Origin: Cycloclasticus sp. symbiont of Poecilosclerida sp. M
GTDB lineage: Bacteria > Pseudomonadota > Gammaproteobacteria > Methylococcales > Cycloclasticaceae
Reading direction: 5' to 3'
Assembly (NCBI GenBank): GCA_002101225.1
Contig: LWTN01000244.1
Location: forward strand, 22,584-86,583
Length of the DNA: 64,000 bases
Shown here piece by piece: positions 6,145-56,528 of the stretch (position 1 is the stretch's first letter; the number at the start of each line of letters is the position of its first letter). Under the pieces are notes generated by a model. It had not been told where the DNA came from. It saw nothing but the letters and a program-made list of their open reading frames with translations, and did no database searches. Made by a program: the position numbers and the translations under genes.

Positions 6145-7122
6145 TTAGTCGTGACTCCAGAATACATCAGCTGGAATAGGTTCTACAGTTCTTACCAATT
6201 TATCTTCGCTTGTTTCAGACAAGACTGTATAAGCCTTTTTAATGGCAGTTTTTTCGGCACCGCCCCAGCTCGCTATACGTCCTTTGCAATAACCGGCGCG
6301 TAACAAGTTTTGTGTGTTGGGGTCAGTTGTTTTTGTAAGCGGAAGGGTAGCTTGCCAATCTTTATCTGAGCTGCATATTAAATTGGCAGCCTGTCGACTA
6401 GCCTCTAAAAACTTTTTGACAGTCTCCGCGTGTTTCTTACCCCAGCTGCGGTTAAATACAAAACCTAAAATAGGAATATTTTTTTTAATACCCAATAGGT
6501 CTAAAATATCGTGGGTATCCAAGAGTTTACGAAAGCCTTGGGCTTCAAGTCTTGCGCTGTAGTGCCAGTAATTTATGAGGGCGTCCACTTTACGTTGTTG
6601 CGCCAAGTTGTTTAATAACGGAGGCGCACCAAAAACCTTTTCGACTTGTTGGTCTAAGTCGTTGTTTGATTGGTTAGAAAGTGCTTTAAGAAACAACCAG
6701 TTTTTATCTAAGCCACCGCCGGCGATACCCAACTTTTTACCGATTAAATCGTTTGTGGAATGAATCGCCGACTCGGCGGGCACCATCAAGGCGCCTGCAG
6801 AGCTTGAGTAGGGTGCGAATTGATAGTGAAACCCGTTCGCGCGTTGTCCAATTGTCCACACCCAGTCTGCAACTATAATATGGGTTGCGCCAGCTTGTAA
6901 TGCAATCTTAGTCGCCTGCGTACTAGCAAGCGGCTGAATATTCAGGGAAAAACCGTTTTCTTCATCGAGTTGGTTTCGTTTTATTGTTTGTAGCGTCCAA
7001 TTAACGGTGCCAAACTCTAAAACAGAAATATTGATGGCCTCGTTTTTTTGTTCCGGCTCGCTACACGATAAAACAGCCAAAACGAGTGGTATCAAAAGAA
7101 AACGAGTAGAAAACTTGAACAT
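6145..7122 (-). CDS. ABC substrate-binding protein, NMT1/THI5/SsuA-like (possibly PqqT-like); possible lipoprotein
   Basis: Likely start is the ATG at 7122 (MFKFSTRFLLIPLVLAVLSC, weak lipobox). FGTVNW, IIVADWVW, GKKLGIAGG, DALINYWH. First gene of the ABC operon. Confidence 0.8.
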   Translation of the reverse strand: MFKFSTRFLLIPLVLAVLSCSEPEQKNEAINISVLEFGTVNWTLQTIKRNQLDEENGFSLNIQPLASTQATKIALQAGATHIIVADWVWTIGQRANGFHYQFAPYSSSAGALMVPAESAIHSTNDLIGKKLGIAGGGLDKNWLFLKALSNQSNNDLDQQVEKVFGAPPLLNNLAQQRKVDALINYWHYSARLEAQGFRKLLDTHDILDLLGIKKNIPILGFVFNRSWGKKHAETVKKFLEASRQAANLICSSDKDWQATLPLTKTTDPNTQNLLRAGYCKGRIASWGGAEKTAIKKAYTVLSETSEDKLVRTVEPIPADVFWSHD

Positions 7123-7474
7123 GATTTTAAAAGGCAAATATTTATGTAATAAAAATAATGTGCCATAGCTTAACGTAAAGCTTGATTTGCTAGAAGTGTT
7201 AATACCAAGTCGCAACTGCAGCTTGAAATCAAACCAAACATAAGTTGGGTTTAAAATAAAAAATTCCATGACGAAAATTACTAACATTTCGACGAAGCTA
7301 TAAATTTATTGACCAATAAAATTAAAATAATGTATGGTTGTATTCAATAAACGAGTATTGATGTAAGTCGTTAATATCAATGAGAATTATTTCTTTTTGA
7401 TAATCATTCTTGCTTGAATAATAACTATATGAAAGACATAGCATTTTTAGAAAAGGTTGGAGCGTGTTGTACGT

Positions 7475-8491
7475 ATGATTAAGAGTTCTGCGGTACCTAT
7501 TCAAAATAAATTAATCGACCGTTTTGGTCGACAAGTGACGTATGTGCGTATTTCGGTAACGGATCGTTGTGATTTTCGCTGTGTTTACTGCATGAGTGAA
7601 GATATGGAGTTCTTGCCGCGTGAACAAGTATTAACATTTGAAGAAATCGCAACCTTATCGCGTGCTTTTGTTGAAATGGGCGTGACTAAAATTCGCATTA
7701 CAGGTGGTGAGCCGCTCGTTCGTAAAGATGTTGTCGGTATGTTGGCAGAGATTTCACAATTAGACGGTTTGGATGAGTTAGTTATTACGACGAATGGATC
7801 TCAGCTTGTAAAACTTGCGGAACCGTTGAAGAAGGCGGGTGTAAAGCGCATTAACATTAGCCTTGATAGTCTAGACGCCGATAAGTTTAAGAAAGTAACC
7901 CGAGTGGGTGACCTTGATGTGGTACTTAAAGGTATACAGGCGGCCAAAAAAGCAGGCTTTGAAAAAATTAAGTTAAACGCGGTGATTCTAAAAAATAGAA
8001 ATCACGATGAAGTTAATAGTTTAGTTCAGTACGCGATGGAAGAAGGGCTTGATATAAGCTTTATTGAAGAAATGCCTTTGGGCGTGGTCGATAGCCACTC
8101 TAGAGAGGAGGCTTATTATTCCAGTGACGAAATCAAGCGCGATATTGAACAGCAGTTTGACTTGCTACCCAGCACGAAGACAACGGGTGGCCCGGCGCGT
8201 TATTACAGCGTGCAAGGGTATGACAATATGGTGGGCTTTATATCGCCACACAGCCATAATTTTTGTGATACTTGCAATAGAGTTCGAGTGACAGCATCAG
8301 GTTTATTATTGCTGTGTTTAGGGCAAGAACATTCGATGGATTTAAAGCGTGTTTTGAGGGCAAATCCTACCGATTTGAATAAGGTTAAACAGGCTCTTAT
8401 AGAGTCGATGGAGATTAAACCGAAAGGACATGATTTTGATATTACTGAGCAACCTGTTATCTTTAGGCATATGAGCGTAACGGGTGGTTAG
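7475..8491 (+). CDS. moaA: GTP 3',8-cyclase MoaA (molybdopterin biosynthesis)
   Basis: Radical-SAM CDFRCVYC, C-terminal cluster CDTCNRVR...C, C-terminal MSVTGG. Start probably the ATG at 7475 (ORF track 7457). Confidence 0.95.
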   Translation: MIKSSAVPIQNKLIDRFGRQVTYVRISVTDRCDFRCVYCMSEDMEFLPREQVLTFEEIATLSRAFVEMGVTKIRITGGEPLVRKDVVGMLAEISQLDGLDELVITTNGSQLVKLAEPLKKAGVKRINISLDSLDADKFKKVTRVGDLDVVLKGIQAAKKAGFEKIKLNAVILKNRNHDEVNSLVQYAMEEGLDISFIEEMPLGVVDSHSREEAYYSSDEIKRDIEQQFDLLPSTKTTGGPARYYSVQGYDNMVGFISPHSHNFCDTCNRVRVTASGLLLLCLGQEHSMDLKRVLRANPTDLNKVKQALIESMEIKPKGHDFDITEQPVIFRHMSVTGG

Positions 8492-45924: not shown

Positions 45925-46495
45925 TGGCTAATAATAACCATGTGCGAATTATTGGTGGACGTTGGCGTGGTCGAAAAATAAACTTTCCTGACGTCGGCAG
46001 ATTAAGGCCAACAACAGACCCTGTTCGAGAAACCCTTTTTAACTGGTTGCAGCCGTATCTACCTCAGGCTAATTGCTTGGATTTATTTGCAGGCAGTGGG
46101 GCGCTTGGCTTTGAGGCGGCCTCAAGGGGCGCAAAGCACGTGTTGATGATTGAAAAAGAAAGTAACATCATTAAATCATTACGGGATAATAAAGAGCTGA
46201 TACAAGCGGATAATGTTCAATTGATGCATCGTACGGCGATGGATTTTTTAAAACATAAACCGAAAGCAGAAAATACGGCGTTTGATGTTGTATTTTTGGA
46301 CCCCCCTTTTCAAACTAGCGCTCTCCCTCAGCACACTGAATCACTTGAAGAAAGTGGTGTCTTGGCGGATGATGCAGTTATCTATTTGGAATGCGAACGT
46401 ACGTTAGACATGGGTTTTCTACCTAAAAACTGGTTAGAGCACCGTCGTAAAACAGCAGGCCAAGTGGCCTATTGTTTATTTCACCGAGAGAAATA

Positions 46496-46496
<1 letters not shown>
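45924..46496 (+). CDS. rsmD: 16S rRNA m2G966 methyltransferase
   Basis: RIIGGRWRGR, RETLFNWL, LDLFAGSGALG, FLDPPF. Confidence 0.95.
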
Positions 46497-47232
<736 letters not shown>

Positions 47233-48947: not shown

Positions 48948-49331
48948 CTAATTAACTTTCAATAACCAACCATCGCTGCCTGGACACCTGTTTGCACCGA
49001 TAGCTTGAATATTAATACGCGCATAGGTGTCTTTTAAGGATGGGGCTAAGGTGCCACTTACCGTGTAACCATTAGAGTCTTTCTTGGTTATGACGTCTAC
49101 AGGTATTTTTTTAACAACTACTTTTATGCTGCTTGGAACTGTTGAGGCTGATGCTAAAAAAGTAAAGCTGGAATTAGGCGAGACTTCAGACAAGTGCGGT
49201 GGTGTGAACTGGCTGAACGTGGGTTTGTTGCATGCTTTTTGACCGCTAGAACTGCCACCATAGGCGAAAGCTGCTGTGTTAGAAGTAATGAGAATCAAGA
49301 CTATCAATAGTTTAAATGTGTTCATAAACAT
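48948..49331 (-). CDS. Exported hypothetical protein with two Cys
   Basis: Signal peptide ending AFA; YGGSSSGQKAC...C..SDGWLLKV; RBS AAAGGAGA. Confidence 0.7.
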   Translation of the reverse strand: MFMNTFKLLIVLILITSNTAAFAYGGSSSGQKACNKPTFSQFTPPHLSEVSPNSSFTFLASASTVPSSIKVVVKKIPVDVITKKDSNGYTVSGTLAPSLKDTYARINIQAIGANRCPGSDGWLLKVN

Positions 49332-49403: not shown

Positions 49404-49817
49404 TTAACAAACGCCAGATAGCTCACATAAACCGTCTAAAACAAGTTGTATAGGGCTAACAACGCCGACAATCTTCCCATTTTCCATGACCGGTGCACGC
49501 ATCAGGCCATAACGGGCAAATAAGCGTGAGCAGTAACGTATGTCCATATCGGGTGAAACGGATATCAGTGGTTTTTCATTGATTTCGTAAACGTTAACGC
49601 GCTCGGGTGCCTTGTTTTTGGCGAGTACTTGCTTTGCGATAATGCCAGCATTGATTACACCGTATTCGTCATTGTCGTGAACTTTCTCTACGATGAGCAT
49701 TGATATTTTATGTTTCTTCATTTCTCTAACGGCTTCAGTAACCGTACATTTTCCATCAATAGTGTGAAAGTCAGTTTTCATTACATCGCGAACGCGAATG
49801 GTTTTTTTATCACTCAT
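49404..49817 (-). CDS. Stand-alone CBS-pair protein
   Basis: VRDVM..., IS.LIV, PLISVSPD, APVM..GKIVGVVS; overlaps the P-II gene by 4 nt. Confidence 0.88.
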   Translation of the reverse strand: MSDKKTIRVRDVMKTDFHTIDGKCTVTEAVREMKKHKISMLIVEKVHDNDEYGVINAGIIAKQVLAKNKAPERVNVYEINEKPLISVSPDMDIRYCSRLFARYGLMRAPVMENGKIVGVVSPIQLVLDGLCELSGVC

Positions 49818-50164
49818 AACTCCTCCTCAATTACGGTTGTAATTTCTTTTGCTTGGTGTAGCACGCCGATAGCATCTTCAACGTCAATTTGAAGAGCGAT
49901 ACCACTACCCGGTTCTTCGTCAAATCGGCCCGCTCGTGCAATTTCTTCGATAATCTTTCGGCATAAGTGTTGCTCAACCAAGAACATAACGACATCGCGC
50001 TGTGTTTCCAGGTTGAGGCCAAGGAAGGTTTTCTTCTTTTGAATGCCCTCACCGCGTGCGTTGTTGATGATGGTCGCGCCAGTTGCACCCATGTTACGTG
50101 CTGCAGCAAGAACATCGTCCGTTTTATTGTCGTCTACAAAAACGATGATTAATTTAAAATGCAT
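49814..50164 (-). CDS. Non-canonical P-II family signal transduction protein
   Basis: KLIIVFV, GATGATI, ARGEG, B-loop GSGIALQIDVE. Confidence 0.85.
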   Translation of the reverse strand: MHFKLIIVFVDDNKTDDVLAAARNMGATGATIINNARGEGIQKKKTFLGLNLETQRDVVMFLVEQHLCRKIIEEIARAGRFDEEPGSGIALQIDVEDAIGVLHQAKEITTVIEEEL

Positions 50165-50165
50165 A

Positions 50166-50960
50166 TTAGTCTCCTTCTTTGGGATTATTGAGCACTGCGC
50201 GGTGCGCTATCCAAGTAGACACTTGGGCATATGCAAGCACAGCTATTATAGGGAAAAGGCTGGCGAAGGCAATGAGGCCAAAGCCATCCAGTAACGGGTT
50301 TCGCCCCGGAATAGTAGAGGCGAGCCCTATGCCTAACGCCGTTACTAAGGGTACGGTTACGGTTGATGTGGTGACGCCGCCAGAATCGTAAGCAAGCCCA
50401 ATGATGAGCTTAGGGGAAAGAGTCGTTTGTAAAATAACAATGATGTAACCGACGATGATATACAAGTACAGCTCGGTTCCAGTAACGATTCGGAATGTAC
50501 CTAAGGCAATACCAAATGAGACACCGGCAGAAACAGATAAACGCAAATACCATGCTTTGATGTTGCCGCCAGAAATTTGTTCCGCTTTGATGGCGACAGC
50601 AATTAAAGATGGCTCGGCTAAGGTGGTGGCAAATCCTATGCAAGCACCAAAAATATAAACCCAGTAATAGTCTTGCCAAACAATGCCAAGTGAGGGGTCG
50701 ATGCTGGGGTTAATGAAATCACTACTGGTCAGCTGTTCAGCCATGGCTGTGCCTAATGGGAATAAGGCTTTATCAAGGCCGACTAAAAACAGTGTCATAC
50801 CGAGAACGACGTAAATCATTCCAATAGTAAGATTTTTTAGTTGTTTAAAGGGGCGACGAATAATGACGAGCTGAAAAAATATAATGATGCCCATAATAGG
50901 CGCTACATCTCGCAGAGTACTCAGTAGCACGGTGATAAATTCTGTTATCCAACTGCTCAT
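50166..50960 (-). CDS. DUF1538 family membrane protein
   Basis: Multi-TM; TLAEPSL and YDSGGVTTSTVTVP motifs. Confidence 0.88.
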   Translation of the reverse strand: MSSWITEFITVLLSTLRDVAPIMGIIIFFQLVIIRRPFKQLKNLTIGMIYVVLGMTLFLVGLDKALFPLGTAMAEQLTSSDFINPSIDPSLGIVWQDYYWVYIFGACIGFATTLAEPSLIAVAIKAEQISGGNIKAWYLRLSVSAGVSFGIALGTFRIVTGTELYLYIIVGYIIVILQTTLSPKLIIGLAYDSGGVTTSTVTVPLVTALGIGLASTIPGRNPLLDGFGLIAFASLFPIIAVLAYAQVSTWIAHRAVLNNPKEGD

Positions 50961-51691
50961 AAAAACATCCCGTAGGCCATAACAAATATTATCGGTGTTA
51001 ACGAGGCGATAGCAATTAAGCCAAAGCCGTCGATCATAGGGTTACGGCCAGCAATAGCAGATGACAGGCCAACGCCTAACGCTGTTACTAGTGGCACGGT
51101 GACGGTACCGGTGGTGACACCACCTGAGTCATAGGCGATGCCAATGATAGTGTCTGGCGCAAAAGCGGTCATAGCGACGACGCCAATGTAGCCAGGAATG
51201 ATTAGGTACTGTAGTGGCCAGCCACGAATAATACGAAGCACACCGATAAGAATGGCTATGCCAACGGAAAAGGCCACGGTATAACGCAAACCAAAGGCGT
51301 AATCATCAATAGCTAGTTCGGATTGCTCAATAGCGCCAGCTTCAGCCGCAATGCGCGCTGCTTCGTCGGCTACTGCAATTAGAGCGGGCTCCGCAACGGT
51401 GGTGCCAAAACCTAAGGAAAAAGCAAAAGTGAGCAACCAGAATAAGCTTCCTTTTCGGGCAAAAGAGTAAGCCATAGTTTCGCCGACGGGGAATAAGCTT
51501 TTCTCAAGGCCTTGGATAAAAAACGTTAAACCTAAAATAATAAAAATCGTGCCAATGGCAATATCGGCAATATTGGGAATGGGCTGCCTTAAGATGAAAA
51601 CTTGGAAGATAAAGATGACAATAAAAATAGGAAGCAGGTCAACGACGCTGCCGAAAATTTGTCGAATAAATTTGTTTTTAATGCTGAACAA
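50957..51691 (-). CDS. DUF1538 family membrane protein (paralog)
   Basis: Multi-TM; TVAEPAL and YDSGGVTTGTVTVP motifs; TTG start with GGAGAG upstream. Confidence 0.88.
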   Translation of the reverse strand: MFSIKNKFIRQIFGSVVDLLPIFIVIFIFQVFILRQPIPNIADIAIGTIFIILGLTFFIQGLEKSLFPVGETMAYSFARKGSLFWLLTFAFSLGFGTTVAEPALIAVADEAARIAAEAGAIEQSELAIDDYAFGLRYTVAFSVGIAILIGVLRIIRGWPLQYLIIPGYIGVVAMTAFAPDTIIGIAYDSGGVTTGTVTVPLVTALGVGLSSAIAGRNPMIDGFGLIAIASLTPIIFVMAYGMFL

Positions 51692-51794
51692 TTAACATCT
51701 CTCCCCATGTTAACTGTATAGGATTTATGTGTTAATTCCTATGTTGAGTTGAGAACTTGTTTAACGATAAGCGGTGATTAAGGAAAATGAATGT

Positions 51795-52618: not shown

Positions 52619-53473
52619 TTAAATATCGGCTGCTTTGGGTGGCGTCGTGAGCTTGTTAAATTTATCTAAACTAAAAACGTAACTTAATTGGTTATTGTTA
52701 GTAGTCGCTAGATAGACCTCATTTTGCTTTTTAGTGACCAAAAACTCGTGTTCTTTGTTATCTTCGAAGATAATTTTAATGCTGAAATCGACTGGCTGAT
52801 AAGTGGTTTTTGTAATCTGTATAGCTCGTGCAAAGCGCCATTCATCTAATAATATTTGTACGCTATCAGGTGAGAGAGAGTTTTCAGGTGAAACTTCATC
52901 TGTCCAGATGGAATCAGTTTGCTGGCTTATCGTGTACTGCGGTGTTTCAATTTTTATGATGGGTGAGTTGCTAATGAGCAATCGGGTATCAATATAGTCG
53001 GTTGCAGGGGCGGTTAAATGGTGTAAGAACGCGTCGTCTACTAAATAGATAGACGTGCCATCACTTACGTAACGTCGCTGGCCAACAGGGTTCGTTTTGC
53101 CAATAGTTAGCTGAGTCTTATCAAAAGATACCTGGGCGCGGGCTTGGTCTAAACCATACAGTTTTTTCTTATCTTCAACTAAGGGGTATTTTGCGGACGC
53201 TTTGATTTGTGAGATTTTGAGTAAGCGCCCTATTTTCCCACTTAGGGCTTTAACAGAGAAGGGTGCAATCATGTTCCACTCGTTACCCGCTTTGACCAAT
53301 TCAACCGTTTCTTGATTTTTGCGTTGAATAGTAATGGACTGAATTAATGTGATATCAAGCTTTGATAAATGAAGGGTCTGTTCTGAACCTTTATCTTGGG
53401 TTAACCAAATAAGCCCGAGCAACAATGAGCCAAGAACCATGAGCATGAGATTAAGCAATAAGCGATTACCCAT
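52619..53473 (-). CDS. DUF4340 family protein
   Basis: N-terminal TM anchor, YGL..., IGKTNP....RYV pattern; follows a GldG-like gene. Start is the ATG at 53473 (ORF track 53512). Confidence 0.75.
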   Translation of the reverse strand: MGNRLLLNLMLMVLGSLLLGLIWLTQDKGSEQTLHLSKLDITLIQSITIQRKNQETVELVKAGNEWNMIAPFSVKALSGKIGRLLKISQIKASAKYPLVEDKKKLYGLDQARAQVSFDKTQLTIGKTNPVGQRRYVSDGTSIYLVDDAFLHHLTAPATDYIDTRLLISNSPIIKIETPQYTISQQTDSIWTDEVSPENSLSPDSVQILLDEWRFARAIQITKTTYQPVDFSIKIIFEDNKEHEFLVTKKQNEVYLATTNNNQLSYVFSLDKFNKLTTPPKAADI

Positions 53474-53477
53474 AGCG

Positions 53478-54851
53478 CTATCGGCGTCTTCGTTTGTACC
53501 AAATGACAACACCGACCGTGAAAAACAGAAGCGGCAATAGCACTAAAAACCCAATACCGAAAACCATTGACCACAGATTGCTTATTTCAAGCGCTGTATC
53601 GTTCGATGTTTTAGCGGGCACACTGATAAAGTTATCGTCGTGATTTAGCCATTGAAATAGACCAAGCCCTAAATCTAAATTCGAGCCGTTGCCTAAAAAA
53701 GCATTTGATAAAAAGTCTCCATCACCGATAACCGCAATACGTTGATGGCTTGCTGGGCTGATGTCTTTTCCTTCAGCGGCTGTAATGTCGCGCGTTAACG
53801 CATAGCCGATGGTGATGGGGCCTTGTTGCTCTTTGGAGTTTTCGTCAAACTTAATGTTGCCTTCAAGAGACCCTGTTTCGGTCCATGAACGCTCAAGCGT
53901 GGACAACAAAGGTGTGGCTATAAAATTTGTAGCCGCGTTAGGGCGGTTGATGCCGCTAGCGCCTGGAAATAAACTCATGCCTTGTAAGTGTCGGGTAGCG
54001 GGGTGTTCTGGGTACTCGGTCACGAGGGCGTTGGTAGGGTCGTCAATACCAAAAATCCGGGTGGTCGCATCTACGACAATACCCGGTGAGAAGGAAATGC
54101 CGAGCGTTTCTGCAAGTTCGAAAATGTTAGGTTGATTGGGCTCGGTCAGCCATAGAAGCTGTCCGCCTGCGGAGATATAGTTTTGTATAATTTTGACTTC
54201 ACCTGCTATAAACGAGGTGCGTGAACTGGCGATAACCAACAAGGTCGTATTGCGTGGAATATCGGGCGTTTCGATTAAGTTAAGGCGTTGCGTGTTAAAG
54301 CCTTTCTGCTTCAGTTGCTGTGCAAATAGACCGTAGTCAAAATTAGCCTTTCCATCGGGGCTGCGTTCGCCGTGACCGGTCAAAAAAACAACCCAGCGTT
54401 GATCGCTACTAGCGAGTCGTTGTAAGGCGTTAGTCAGGTTTTGCTCGTCAAGATTGGTAATAGATTCACGCCGACCATTATAATAAATGATGAGTTCGCC
54501 GTCGGCTGTAATGCCTTGTTCACGCGCTAAATCGGGGCGTGTGTCGGGATTAATGAAGTCTAAATTTAAGTCGCTTTTGTGTTGTTGATAACGCCTTACG
54601 AGCTCTTTTATCCGTTTTCGAATGAGCTCATTTTTGGTGACATAAGCTGAAATATTAATTGGCGTATTAAGCTTGCCTAGTAGCTGAATACTAGGCTGGG
54701 ATAGTGAGTTTTTATTGCTCGCCGTCCAGTCAGACTGCACGGTGTATTGGGTGCTTAGCCAAGCGAGCATCATAACGATACTAATAAACAATACGCCAAA
54801 CGCGATATTTTGCAGCCGGATTTGCATATGTGTTTTAGGCGTTAAGTTCAT
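53478..54851 (-). CDS. GldG-family ABC auxiliary protein
   Basis: DWTASNKNSLS, FLTGHGER, VIGDGDFLSN; C-terminal TM followed by RRRR. Confidence 0.85.
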   Translation of the reverse strand: MNLTPKTHMQIRLQNIAFGVLFISIVMMLAWLSTQYTVQSDWTASNKNSLSQPSIQLLGKLNTPINISAYVTKNELIRKRIKELVRRYQQHKSDLNLDFINPDTRPDLAREQGITADGELIIYYNGRRESITNLDEQNLTNALQRLASSDQRWVVFLTGHGERSPDGKANFDYGLFAQQLKQKGFNTQRLNLIETPDIPRNTTLLVIASSRTSFIAGEVKIIQNYISAGGQLLWLTEPNQPNIFELAETLGISFSPGIVVDATTRIFGIDDPTNALVTEYPEHPATRHLQGMSLFPGASGINRPNAATNFIATPLLSTLERSWTETGSLEGNIKFDENSKEQQGPITIGYALTRDITAAEGKDISPASHQRIAVIGDGDFLSNAFLGNGSNLDLGLGLFQWLNHDDNFISVPAKTSNDTALEISNLWSMVFGIGFLVLLPLLFFTVGVVIWYKRRRR

Positions 54852-55603
54852 TTCTGCAAGCGGTCGTTATCTAAACGTTTAATGCTTAGGATGAGAAAGC
54901 TGCCAATAAATAAGATGAAATAGATAACGTCGGTAGAATTGACCAAGCCTTGTAATAAATTCTCAAAGTGATGCAGGATAGATAAATAACTCAGCACATC
55001 GCTAGCGCTATCGCTGACATTACTGCTCCAGTCGATAATCCATAGAAGCAGCAAGACGCCAAAGCTGCCGACCGCCGCGATAGTAGGTTGTGGTGCAATT
55101 GCCGACATATACACGCCTAATGCGCTAAAGGAGGCCAGTAACAACACCATGCCAAGCAGTCCAGCCAAGAATTTGCCAGAATCGAGTGAGCCGATGGAGA
55201 GAAGCGATAAAGGCATGAGCGATACCAACAACAAAACAACCATCAAAAATGCGAAGGTAGCTAAAAATTTCCCAAGGATAATCTCGGTCATCGATATGGG
55301 CGCAGAAAACAATAAGCTAATCGTTTTGTTACGCCGTTCATCGCTGATTAGACGCATGGTTAGTAGCGGTGTGATGAGCAACAAAATTGTCGCAGCATTA
55401 CCCAAAATAGGCGCGACGATTAAATCGGTAATACCGGGCGCAGCGGTGATGCCCGCAAGTTTGGCTTGAATAGTTAAGTAATAATCAACCTGCGATAAAA
55501 ACAAGTAGGCGAAAAGCAGTTGGGTGACGCCGAGTAAGGTCCAAGCTAATGGAGAAAGAAATAGGCTGCGTAATTCGCGGGCGGCGATGGTAAAGCTATT
55601 CAT
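54848..55603 (-). CDS. GldF-like ABC-2 permease
   Basis: RELRSLFLSPLAW, TMRLISDERR...LLFSAP, LGKF. Confidence 0.88.
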   Translation of the reverse strand: MNSFTIAARELRSLFLSPLAWTLLGVTQLLFAYLFLSQVDYYLTIQAKLAGITAAPGITDLIVAPILGNAATILLLITPLLTMRLISDERRNKTISLLFSAPISMTEIILGKFLATFAFLMVVLLLVSLMPLSLLSIGSLDSGKFLAGLLGMVLLLASFSALGVYMSAIAPQPTIAAVGSFGVLLLLWIIDWSSNVSDSASDVLSYLSILHHFENLLQGLVNSTDVIYFILFIGSFLILSIKRLDNDRLQK

Positions 55604-56528
55604 TAATCTCAGTATCCTTGGTTAAGGAAATAAAAATTTCTTCCATGCTGTGTTTTTCTTCATTTAAGTGCAGCAAGCCCCAGTGGTTTTTAACAGCCAA
55701 CTCGGCAAATTCTTCAGCGAGCTTATGCTCGGGCAGATGGTGCAGGCGAAAGTGTTGATCACCCAATAGATCAACCTCAGTCACAGCGTTAATGGCTTGT
55801 AAGTCAGCAAGCTCAGGCGGTTGACGTAATTGCACCTTAAGGGTTGAGCTGGTCATGCGGGCGGTCAAATCATCAATACCTTCACTTAGCACGAGTTTGC
55901 CTTGGTGAATAATTTGAACACGACTGCACGATTGTTGTACTTCAGATAAAATATGGGTTGATAAAATAACGCTATGCTCTTTACCTAAATCACGGATTAA
56001 TTGACGTATCTCCATAATTTGCATCGGGTCTAAACCCACAGTGGGTTCATCCAGTACAACCACAGAAGGGTTATGCAAGATAGCCTGAGCGATGCCGACG
56101 CGCTGCTGAAAACCTTTAGATAAGTTGCCAATAAGGCGGTCGCCAACCTCGGTTAAAGCGCATTTCTCTTTGCCGTGGTCAACGGCTTGCTTAAGGGAGG
56201 GCTTCGAGACGCCATGTAATTTTGCGCAGTAATGTAGGAATTCATCAACCGTTAGTTCGGGATATAGAGGCGGTATTTCTGGCAAACACCCCAACTCAGC
56301 TTTCGCCAATTTAGGCTGTTCGAGCATATCGTAGCCATTGATTTTAACGCTACCAAGAGTAGGCGCTAAGGTGCCGCAAATCATCTTCATGGTGGTAGAT
56401 TTTCCCGCGCCATTAGGCCCAAGAAAGCCGAGTACTTCCCCTTTTTTTAGAAAAAAACTCACGTCGTCAACTACGCAGTGTTCACCAAATTGGCGTGATA
56501 ATTTATTGACTTCAATGAGTGTGGTCAT
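55596..56528 (-). CDS. GldA-like ABC ATP-binding protein
   Basis: GPNGAGKST, LSKGFQQR, LDEPTVGLDP, STHILSEV. Confidence 0.92.
   Translation of the reverse strand: MTTLIEVNKLSRQFGEHCVVDDVSFFLKKGEVLGFLGPNGAGKSTTMKMICGTLAPTLGSVKINGYDMLEQPKLAKAELGCLPEIPPLYPELTVDEFLHYCAKLHGVSKPSLKQAVDHGKEKCALTEVGDRLIGNLSKGFQQRVGIAQAILHNPSVVVLDEPTVGLDPMQIMEIRQLIRDLGKEHSVILSTHILSEVQQSCSRVQIIHQGKLVLSEGIDDLTARMTSSTLKVQLRQPPELADLQAINAVTEVDLLGDQHFRLHHLPEHKLAEEFAELAVKNHWGLLHLNEEKHSMEEIFISLTKDTEINE

Follow-up and report, generated by a model that had tools for sequence, protein, structure and literature searches.

Four adjacent genes on contig LWTN01000244.1, from the Cycloclasticus sp. symbiont of Poecilosclerida sp. 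M, encode two DUF1538 membrane proteins, a PII-like protein and a stand-alone CBS pair. The genes lie within the 64,000-nucleotide stretch of this contig that we analyzed, hereafter called the window. We favor, with modest confidence, the reading that they specify a two-subunit monovalent cation/proton antiporter of the UmpAB type together with a dedicated cytoplasmic regulatory pair. This reading draws on a gene order that is kept in several phyla, on the resemblance of the membrane pair to an antiporter characterized from Halomonas, and on related PII-like genes that adjoin Na+/H+ exchangers. The four genes and the leader that precedes them are listed below, with the length of each open reading frame (ORF) in amino acids (aa).

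50957..51691, minus strand: UmpA-like DUF1538 membrane subunit (ORF of 244 aa, TTG start; PF07556)
50166..50960, minus strand: UmpB-like DUF1538 membrane subunit (ORF of 264 aa; PF07556)
49814..50164, minus strand: PII-like protein (ORF of 116 aa; PF00543)
49404..49817, minus strand: stand-alone CBS pair (ORF of 137 aa; PF00571)
51692..51794, minus strand: intergenic leader between fpg and the first DUF1538 gene

Conservation of the four-gene cluster

A first-pass annotation of this region described four tightly coupled genes, and its ORF limits, its junctions and both of its membrane-protein motifs proved correct in every detail. Read from 5' to 3', the UmpA-like and UmpB-like genes overlap by 4 nucleotides, the UmpB-like and PII-like genes are separated by 1 nucleotide, and the PII-like and CBS genes overlap by 4 nucleotides. 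On the basis of these overlaps alone, the four genes would be co-transcribed.

Our scan of one genome per species yielded at least 593 DUF1538 matches, and we examined the 80 closest loci (63-81% identity). These derive from Gammaproteobacteria (Cycloclasticus, Methylococcales, Thalassotalea, Colwellia, Hahella, Sedimenticola, Thiomargarita and others) and from Gallionellaceae, Rhodospirillaceae, Nitrospirota and Candidatus Electrothrix. ORFs were called in each locus and searched with the four window proteins, and gene order was counted in the 73 loci that have at least 1,700 nucleotides of downstream sequence. The order UmpA-UmpB-PII-CBS on one strand is found in 68 of these 73 loci, representing several phyla, a recurrence far in excess of what chance would give. 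The five exceptions comprise one frameshifted CBS gene, two loci without a CBS gene (Thiomicrorhabdus and Thiosulfatimonas) and two with UmpA alone. The latter are from Thiomargarita and Candidatus Parabeggiatoa (L043 and L049), where the lone UmpA-like gene has no UmpB, PII-like or CBS gene within the flanks examined.

Among 70 loci, the junction between the two membrane protein genes is an overlap of 4 nucleotides in 32 and of 1 nucleotide in 22. The PII-like and CBS genes overlap in 67 of the 70, by 4 nucleotides in 59 and by 1 nucleotide in 8. Independent gene calls carrying precomputed Pfam labels recover the same four families. There is therefore strong support for a conserved unit of four translationally coupled genes, in which the PII-like and CBS genes are regular partners of the membrane pair, in line with the first-pass interpretation.

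Clustering of the ORFs that flank the 80 loci reveals no further conserved neighbor, and thus the module is self-contained. The commonest flanking clusters are nadC-like (17 loci), ampD-like (13 loci) and a CPA2-type exchanger (8 loci). Genes for RuBisCO, carboxysomes, carbonic anhydrase, amtB and glnA are not recurrent in these 80 neighborhoods. Inorganic carbon and ammonium, two of the substrates initially offered for this system, are consequently disfavored, because no carbon-fixation or nitrogen-assimilation genes recur nearby, whereas Na+/H+ exchangers do. Apart from its degenerate CBS nucleotide motifs, the window copy is typical of the module, which is widespread and little studied. In the searchable literature, whose coverage of subscription journals is poor, DUF1538 is mentioned in six papers, none of which connects it with PII or CBS, and the regulatory half, the topology and the CPA2-linked sister clade of the module appear to be new.

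Relationship of the membrane proteins to UmpAB

Both membrane proteins cover the full PF07556 (DUF1538) profile of Pfam, with E values of 9e-70 for the first and 4e-69 for the second, and they are 44% identical to each other. Each carries the motifs AEP(A/S)L and YDSGGVTT(G/S)TVTVP, in agreement with their earlier description as a paralogous polytopic pair. In the UmpA-like subunit these are AEPAL at residues 100-104 and YDSGGVTTGTVTVP at residues 187-200. The UmpB-like subunit has AEPSL and YDSGGVTTSTVTVP; its loop II-III is longer, and its C-terminus is extended by a tail that is basic and hydrophilic. When compared with NCBIfam models, the first protein scores 351 bits with UmpA versus 180 bits with UmpB, and the second scores 317 bits with UmpB versus 217 bits with UmpA. 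The two models (NF041627 and NF041628) are named "Na,Li,K/H(+) antiporter subunit UmpA" and "UmpB", and their equivalog cut-offs are 490 and 500 bits, respectively.

The umpAB genes were cloned from Halomonas zhaodongensis via complementation of E. coli KNabc (PMC5484666). Neither umpA nor umpB is active singly, while the pair confers tolerance of salt, Li+ and alkaline pH in E. coli. The two proteins co-immunoprecipitate in the membrane as a heterodimer, and everted vesicles carrying UmpAB exhibit pH-dependent Na+(Li+,K+)/H+ antiport (PMC5484666). The statement in the first-pass annotation that DUF1538 has no assigned function must therefore be withdrawn, given this measured antiport and the matching NCBIfam models. 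The same annotation had named an existing characterization of DUF1538 in another role as a reason to abandon its proposal. Such a characterization does exist, but the role fits the cation that was among the substrates it offered. Its suggestion of a heteromeric membrane transporter likewise gains support.

A search of a plasmid collection gave no Halomonas hit. The cloned Halomonas fragment, as described, contains no ORF past umpB (PMC5484666). Because this clone carries neither a PII nor a CBS gene, UmpAB operates in E. coli without them. UmpA is distinguished by an extra stretch in loop III-IV, and UmpB by an extra stretch in loop II-III and a hydrophilic C-terminus (PMC5484666); all three of these paralogue-specific features are visible in the window pair. 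The published UmpA and UmpB clades contain Methyloglobulus (PMC5484666), whose loci are 71-72% identical to the first window protein. Since gene order, paralogue features and best model matches agree, the window pair can be placed in the UmpA and UmpB clades. At the level of sequence, the assignment of the two proteins as UmpA and UmpB orthologues by order and paralogue-specific features is strongly supported, and by extension the pair would be expected to carry out antiport.

The window genes resemble umpAB in being adjacent, overlapping and approximately 44% identical, with A preceding B and each best matching its own model. They differ in scoring under the equivalog cut-offs. PII or CBS partners, the topology and orientation of the subunits, and fusions receive no mention in the UmpAB paper (PMC5484666).

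Predicted topology of the membrane subunits

We modeled the window pair as one chain with AlphaFold2, using natural fusions as the alignment. The concatenated model has a mean predicted local distance difference test score (pLDDT) of 79.4 and a predicted template-modeling score of 0.78. Its secondary structure is consistent with seven segments per unit, the number given by the published prediction (PMC5484666). In both halves, helix breaks are predicted at A-E-P (100-101) and T-T-G-T-V (193-197). The idea that the GGVTT segment forms a re-entrant or pore loop agrees with this model, in which a helix is predicted to break at that segment, the arrangement expected of a broken helix or a re-entrant loop. 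Among 374 DUF1538 domains, A100, E101, P102, D188, D221, F223 and G224 are invariant, and R153 is 99% conserved. The DUF1538 protein sequence has no PDB match even at an E value of 10, and a Foldseek comparison of the concatenated model with the PDB gives nothing meaningful (best E value of 0.017, template-modeling score < 0.2). Because both searches are empty, no known transporter fold can be assigned.

Positively charged residues are distributed in opposite ways in the two subunits. In the window, the count of Lys plus Arg is 9 in the odd loops versus 2 in the even loops of the first protein, and 9 in the even loops versus 3 in the odd loops of the second. Mean counts for the subunits and for natural fusions are as follows.

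UmpA-like subunit: odd loops 7.5, even loops 2.3; bias in 70 of 70
UmpB-like subunit: odd loops 3.8, even loops 9.2; bias in 69 of 70
Fused protein, N-terminal half: odd loops 8.1, even loops 1.8; bias in 116 of 116
Fused protein, C-terminal half: odd loops 3.7, even loops 11.1; bias in 116 of 116

The linker between the halves of fused proteins comprises about 25 hydrophilic residues. By the positive-inside rule, the opposite charge biases, together with the seven segments predicted per unit and this short hydrophilic linker, suggest that the two units are antiparallel. The UmpA-like subunit is predicted to have its N-terminus inside, its C-terminus outside and seven segments between them, and the UmpB-like subunit is predicted to adopt the opposite orientation.

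The PII-like protein

The identification of a P-II-like gene and a stand-alone CBS pair in the first-pass annotation is borne out by Pfam. The third protein matches PF00543 (P-II) with an E value of 1.8e-10 and 41.5 bits against a gathering cut-off of 25, and the fourth matches PF00571 at two stretches (E value of 3.9e-17). The PII-like protein is not covered by any NCBIfam model. An AlphaFold2 model (pLDDT of 81.5) contains a beta-alpha-beta-beta-alpha-beta core, with elements at the following residues.

Strand 1, 3-11; helix 1, 12-24; strand 2, 30-36
T-loop, 37-55 (19 residues); strand 3, 56-64; helix 2, 65-79
Strand 4, 88-94; predicted extra C-terminal helix, 95-115

Foldseek matches this model to GlnB, GlnK (including its AmtB complex), CPII and SbtB, all with a probability of 1.0 and none favored over the others. 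As judged from the model, a true PII fold for the third protein is strongly supported. Foldseek had been proposed in advance as a check on the system; it succeeded for the PII-like protein and revealed no PDB likeness for the membrane pair.

In sequence, the protein is remote from canonical PII, with its best PDB match at an E value of 0.04. An exhaustive search of 1.84 billion representatives recovers 1,188 clusters of relatives at E ≤ 1e-3 and 310 at E ≤ 1e-10. Members are either single (about 116 aa) or tandem (210-260 aa), and the length is exactly 116 aa in 70 of 71 orthologues. Residues K4, G26, A27, G29, T31, G49, G88 and G100 are invariant across diverse members. By its sequence signatures this is a distinct PII-like subfamily, marked by G-A-x-G-x-T, which aligns to the canonical strand-2 G-x-x-G-x-T, and by G-x-G-I-A, which aligns to the B-loop G-D-G-K-I.

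Residues K90, R101, R103, R38, Q39 and K58 of PII structures are phosphate and 2-oxoglutarate ligands. In the subfamily described here, the K90 position is Ile or Val, the R101 position is the invariant Gly100 and the R103 position is variable. K58 falls in a deletion, and R38 and Q39 are not conserved. Neither Tyr nor Ser is present at the positions aligned to Tyr51 and Ser49, the T-loop modification sites. A nucleotide pocket may survive in the PII-like protein, and canonical sensing of Mg-ATP and 2-oxoglutarate seems unlikely.

The CBS pair

The Asp of G-h-h-(S/T)-x-x-D in each CBS motif is a ribose-binding residue. The window protein has GVINAGII and VSPIQL at these sites, such that Ile and Gln replace both Asp residues, and the same replacements are found in its Cycloclasticus relatives (L001-L003 and L012). 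Asp is kept at both sites in most orthologues among 70 loci, and Methylococcales have lost only the second. Nucleotide binding by the CBS pair in the Cycloclasticus lineage may be altered or lost. With the loss of K90, R101 and R103, the lack of conservation of R38, Q39 and K58, and these Ile and Gln substitutions, the notion that the system carries two adenylate sensors has become doubtful.

The closest solved relative of the CBS protein is CBS-CP12 (5nmu; E value of 4e-21 over residues 7-125), which binds AMP specifically and whose CBS part is dimeric by itself (PMC6142219). Together with other stand-alone CBS pairs (CBSX), CBS-CP12 of Microcystis is among the nearest known counterparts of the window protein, which has no CP12 domain and carries Ile and Gln in place of the two Asp residues seen in CBS-CP12 and most orthologues.

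Fused and reduced forms

Distant relatives of the cluster preserve only some of its parts. A plasmid of Methylocystis encodes DUF1538-DUF1538-PII without CBS. Five Bacillota (Paraclostridium, Peptoclostridium, Clostridium formicaceticum, Virgibacillus and an Acholeplasmataceae metagenome-assembled genome) have a gene of approximately 497 aa in which two DUF1538 domains are fused, overlapped by a tandem PII-like gene of approximately 222 aa, again without CBS. A third form, present on two metagenome contigs, consists of the fused DUF1538 gene followed by one PII-like and one CBS gene.

L082, 4074-6225: Bacillota two-gene locus
L083, 4074-6225: Bacillota two-gene locus
L084, 4001-6155: Bacillota two-gene locus
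L085, 4001-6158: Bacillota two-gene locus
L086, 2877-5023: Bacillota two-gene locus
L097, 2-2277: third form
L099, 2082-4755: third form

Domain counts are correlated across these arrangements, in that a pair of DUF1538 domains is accompanied either by a pair of PII domains or by a single PII domain plus one CBS pair. From these forms, two DUF1538 domains and PII make up the ancient core, and the CBS pair joined later, standing in numerically for the second PII domain. The Bacillota two-gene form may be the simplest target for structural work. One protein of 235 aa (P0379) is an apparent PII-CBS fusion. Its middle is garbled and it is probably a frameshift artefact across the overlapping gene pair, and we did not use it as evidence.

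PII-like genes beside Na+/H+ exchangers

Metagenome contigs were scanned with three distant members of the PII-like subfamily. The seven closest PII-like loci are not adjacent to DUF1538. In six of these seven, the PII-like gene instead adjoins, on the same strand, a PF00999 Na_H_Exchanger gene with TrkA_N and/or TrkA_C. The PII-like protein of this sister clade is 44% identical to that of the window (E value of 4e-30). Among the remaining metagenome loci, DUF1538 is upstream in all 23 that have upstream DNA, and CBS is also present in 19 of 24. A CPA2 exchanger is found near the UmpAB-type cluster in 8 of the 80 loci described above, typically just downstream.

L087, 2186-4345: exchanger-PII pair
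L088, 1761-4348: exchanger-PII pair
L089 and L090, 2184-4351: exchanger-PII pair
L091, 4001-6383: exchanger-PII pair
L092, 228-2610: exchanger-PII pair
L075, 7415-9427: 670-aa CPA2 exchanger with TrkA_N and TrkA_C; likewise at 7 other loci of L001-L080

Because the sister clade adjoins Na+/H+ exchangers, which constitutes independent genomic evidence, the PII-like subfamily is likely to serve cation/proton antiporters. This linkage fits the published UmpAB activity better than it fits inorganic carbon or ammonium. It is quite possible, and we propose only tentatively, that the subfamily (about 300 to 1,200 clusters at 50% identity, single or tandem, with the adenine pocket kept and the basic phosphate ligands absent) is dedicated to cation/proton antiporters of two unrelated folds, DUF1538 and CPA2-RCK. 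DUF1538 itself would represent a new transporter fold, an antiparallel 7+7 heterodimer or inverted repeat with ion sites at the invariant A-E-P and D-x-G-G helix breaks.

In L089 and L090, a DUF1538-PII-CBS cluster (approximately 6960-8345, minus strand) is situated about 3 kb from the exchanger-PII pair. Two PII-like paralogues, each with its own antiporter, are thus found within one small region.

A model for the module and its alternatives

In the mechanism that we favor, the UmpA-like and UmpB-like proteins would pair in antiparallel fashion, giving a heterodimer that corresponds to an inverted repeat of 14 segments. The invariant residues E101 (of A-E-P) and D188 (of D-x-G-G), which coincide with the predicted breaks of segments 3 and 6 in each subunit, might bind the cation and the proton during alternating-access exchange. 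Overlapping genes would yield the CBS pair and the PII-like protein, the latter presumably trimeric, in fixed proportion. Their assembly would dock on the cytoplasmic face, formed by the odd loops of the UmpA-like subunit and by the even loops and basic C-terminal tail of the UmpB-like subunit, with the conserved T-loop (K-T-F-x-G-L) as a likely contact. A small ligand, probably not Mg-ATP or 2-oxoglutarate bound in the canonical manner, could then switch the antiporter on or off. What the data show is the gene content and its conservation, the folds and the states of the motifs; the substrate (from homology and context), the orientation, the contact and the gating are what we infer.

Several points weigh against this mechanism. 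Both window proteins miss the equivalog cut-offs of their models (351 versus 490 bits and 317 versus 500 bits), and antiport has been assayed by a single laboratory, in a heterologous host and with the homologue from Halomonas. Charge bias is the only guide to whether the broken segments span the membrane or are re-entrant. Physical contact among the four products is presumed, and a trimeric PII protein does not obviously match a heterodimeric transporter. Moreover, ligand gating may differ from the textbook form or be absent, because the PII-like protein lacks the canonical phosphate ligands and the CBS pair of this lineage has lost both Asp residues.

The same architecture could also serve a different true substrate, such as bicarbonate, ammonium or another small solute, with antiport in KNabc being a side activity and the PII-like protein reporting carbon or nitrogen status. 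The known PII-transporter pairs SbtB-SbtA and GlnK-AmtB handle HCO3- and NH4+, and the single heterologous study, the scores under the equivalog cut-offs and a fold unlike that of any solved antiporter are all compatible with this possibility. Nonetheless, we regard it as fairly unlikely, given that bona fide CPA Na+/H+ exchangers accompany the sister PII-like clade, that CPA2-RCK genes flank 8 of the 80 clusters, that the carbon and nitrogen genes sought in those neighborhoods do not recur and that the 2-oxoglutarate ligand residues are unconserved in the subfamily.

A different question is whether the two small proteins sense anything. They could be fixed structural or assembly subunits, at least in the Cycloclasticus lineage, where both ribose-binding Asp residues are gone from the CBS protein of the window and its closest relatives. 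The absence of K90, R101 and R103 from the entire PII-like subfamily, its strict length and the tight coupling by overlaps can all be read in this way. However, the activity of UmpAB in E. coli without these proteins implies that neither assembly nor transport depends on them. Across the subfamily, the G-A-x-G-x-T of the adenine pocket and the glycines of the B-loop are invariant, and both Asp residues persist in most orthologous CBS pairs, such that a purely structural role seems unlikely. We consider it very unlikely that the targets of the PII-like and CBS proteins lie elsewhere, for example among enzymes or transcription factors, and that only co-transcription links their genes to the transporter. 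Canonical PII proteins do have many targets, and contact with the transporter is presumed here. Nevertheless, the linkage persists in Pseudomonadota, Nitrospirota, Desulfobulbia and Bacillota while other neighbors change, the number of DUF1538 domains tracks that of PII and CBS, and the sister clade is likewise bound to a transporter gene.

Comparison with other systems

As in PII-gated systems, the PII gene consistently lies next to the gene for the transporter. Like GlnK-AmtB and SbtB-SbtA, the module has a small PII-fold gene directly after a presumed transporter gene, and Foldseek matches its product to 2ns1 and SbtB with a probability of 1.0. In contrast to those systems, the transporter belongs to the unrelated DUF1538 family, and the PII-like protein has no phosphate, 2-oxoglutarate or Tyr51/Ser49 sites. 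It also has a predicted C-terminal helix, a co-encoded CBS partner and a presumed heterodimer, rather than a trimer, as its transporter. CPA2-RCK antiporters such as KefC and CpaA similarly couple cation/proton antiport, which for the window pair is presumed from homology, to a cytoplasmic ligand-binding module. However, DUF1538 has no sequence or fold relation to PF00999, and its putative regulators are separate PII-like and CBS proteins rather than a fused RCK domain.

Pairs of the EbrAB/YdgEF type are small antiparallel transporters for which fused inverted-repeat forms exist. The DUF1538 proteins share with them adjacent paralogues of opposite positive-inside bias, and natural fusions occur with a predicted odd number of segments per half. 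They differ in having seven predicted segments rather than four, in belonging to an unrelated family and in that their orientation is predicted. A further parallel is PII-NG, which PMC7726332 describes, citing Sant'Anna et al. 2009, as a PII clade encoded with czcABC proton/cation efflux genes. PII-NG is also a non-canonical PII protein genetically tied to a proton/cation antiport system. Its partner is a resistance-nodulation-division heavy-metal pump rather than DUF1538 or CPA2; no czc gene is present here, and the comparison is one of genomic context only.

Few signal processors are as widespread as PII proteins, and the new classes of PII-transporter pair represented by GlnK-AmtB and SbtB-SbtA each opened a field. 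The module described here occurs in many marine and sediment bacteria (methanotrophs, sulfur oxidizers, cable bacteria, Nitrospirota and symbionts) and, in fused form, in Bacillota, and it suggests PII-type control of salt and pH homeostasis. If the tentative proposal of a dedicated PII-like subfamily is true, that subfamily would place Na+, K+ and pH homeostasis under a signal of metabolic or ionic origin, in many cases alongside a CBS pair. The module offers several experimental handles, including a testable topology, three invariant acidic residues (E101, D188 and D221) and a minimal two-gene form in Clostridia.

Flanking DNA and neighboring genes

The closest proteins in databases are from Cycloclasticus, sponge and mussel symbionts among them. 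The fpg gene upstream of the cluster is a neighbor common only to the Cycloclasticus clade. A Shine-Dalgarno sequence, GGGGAGAG (51706-51699), is located 7 nucleotides ahead of the TTG start of the UmpA-like gene. A weak sigma-70-like site at 51735-51707 matches 9 of 12 positions, no better than shuffled sequences yield, and promoter and terminator scans of the locus do no better than shuffles. Rfam yields no match at any point in the 64-kb window, and thus no riboswitch or leader is recognized. We found no RNA-seq runs that hold the stretch, which is present only in sponge and symbiont DNA metagenomes.

A 127-aa ORF (48948-49331, minus strand) starts 72 nucleotides past the CBS gene and has a hydrophobic, signal-peptide-like N-terminus and its own AAGGAG ribosome site. 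It has no Pfam or NCBIfam match, and we place it outside the module because it is common to just one related locus (L003). Upstream of fpg, a string of genes on the minus strand (52619-56528) encodes an ABC ATPase, an ABC-2 permease, a GldG-like ABC_transp_aux protein and a DUF4340 protein, with no substrate assigned. On the plus strand, the TTG start listed for a CoaD-like ORF (46472-46975) overlaps the preceding RsmD-like gene by 25 nucleotides, and an in-frame ATG nine codons inside (MTKKAIYPG...) looks to be the likelier start.

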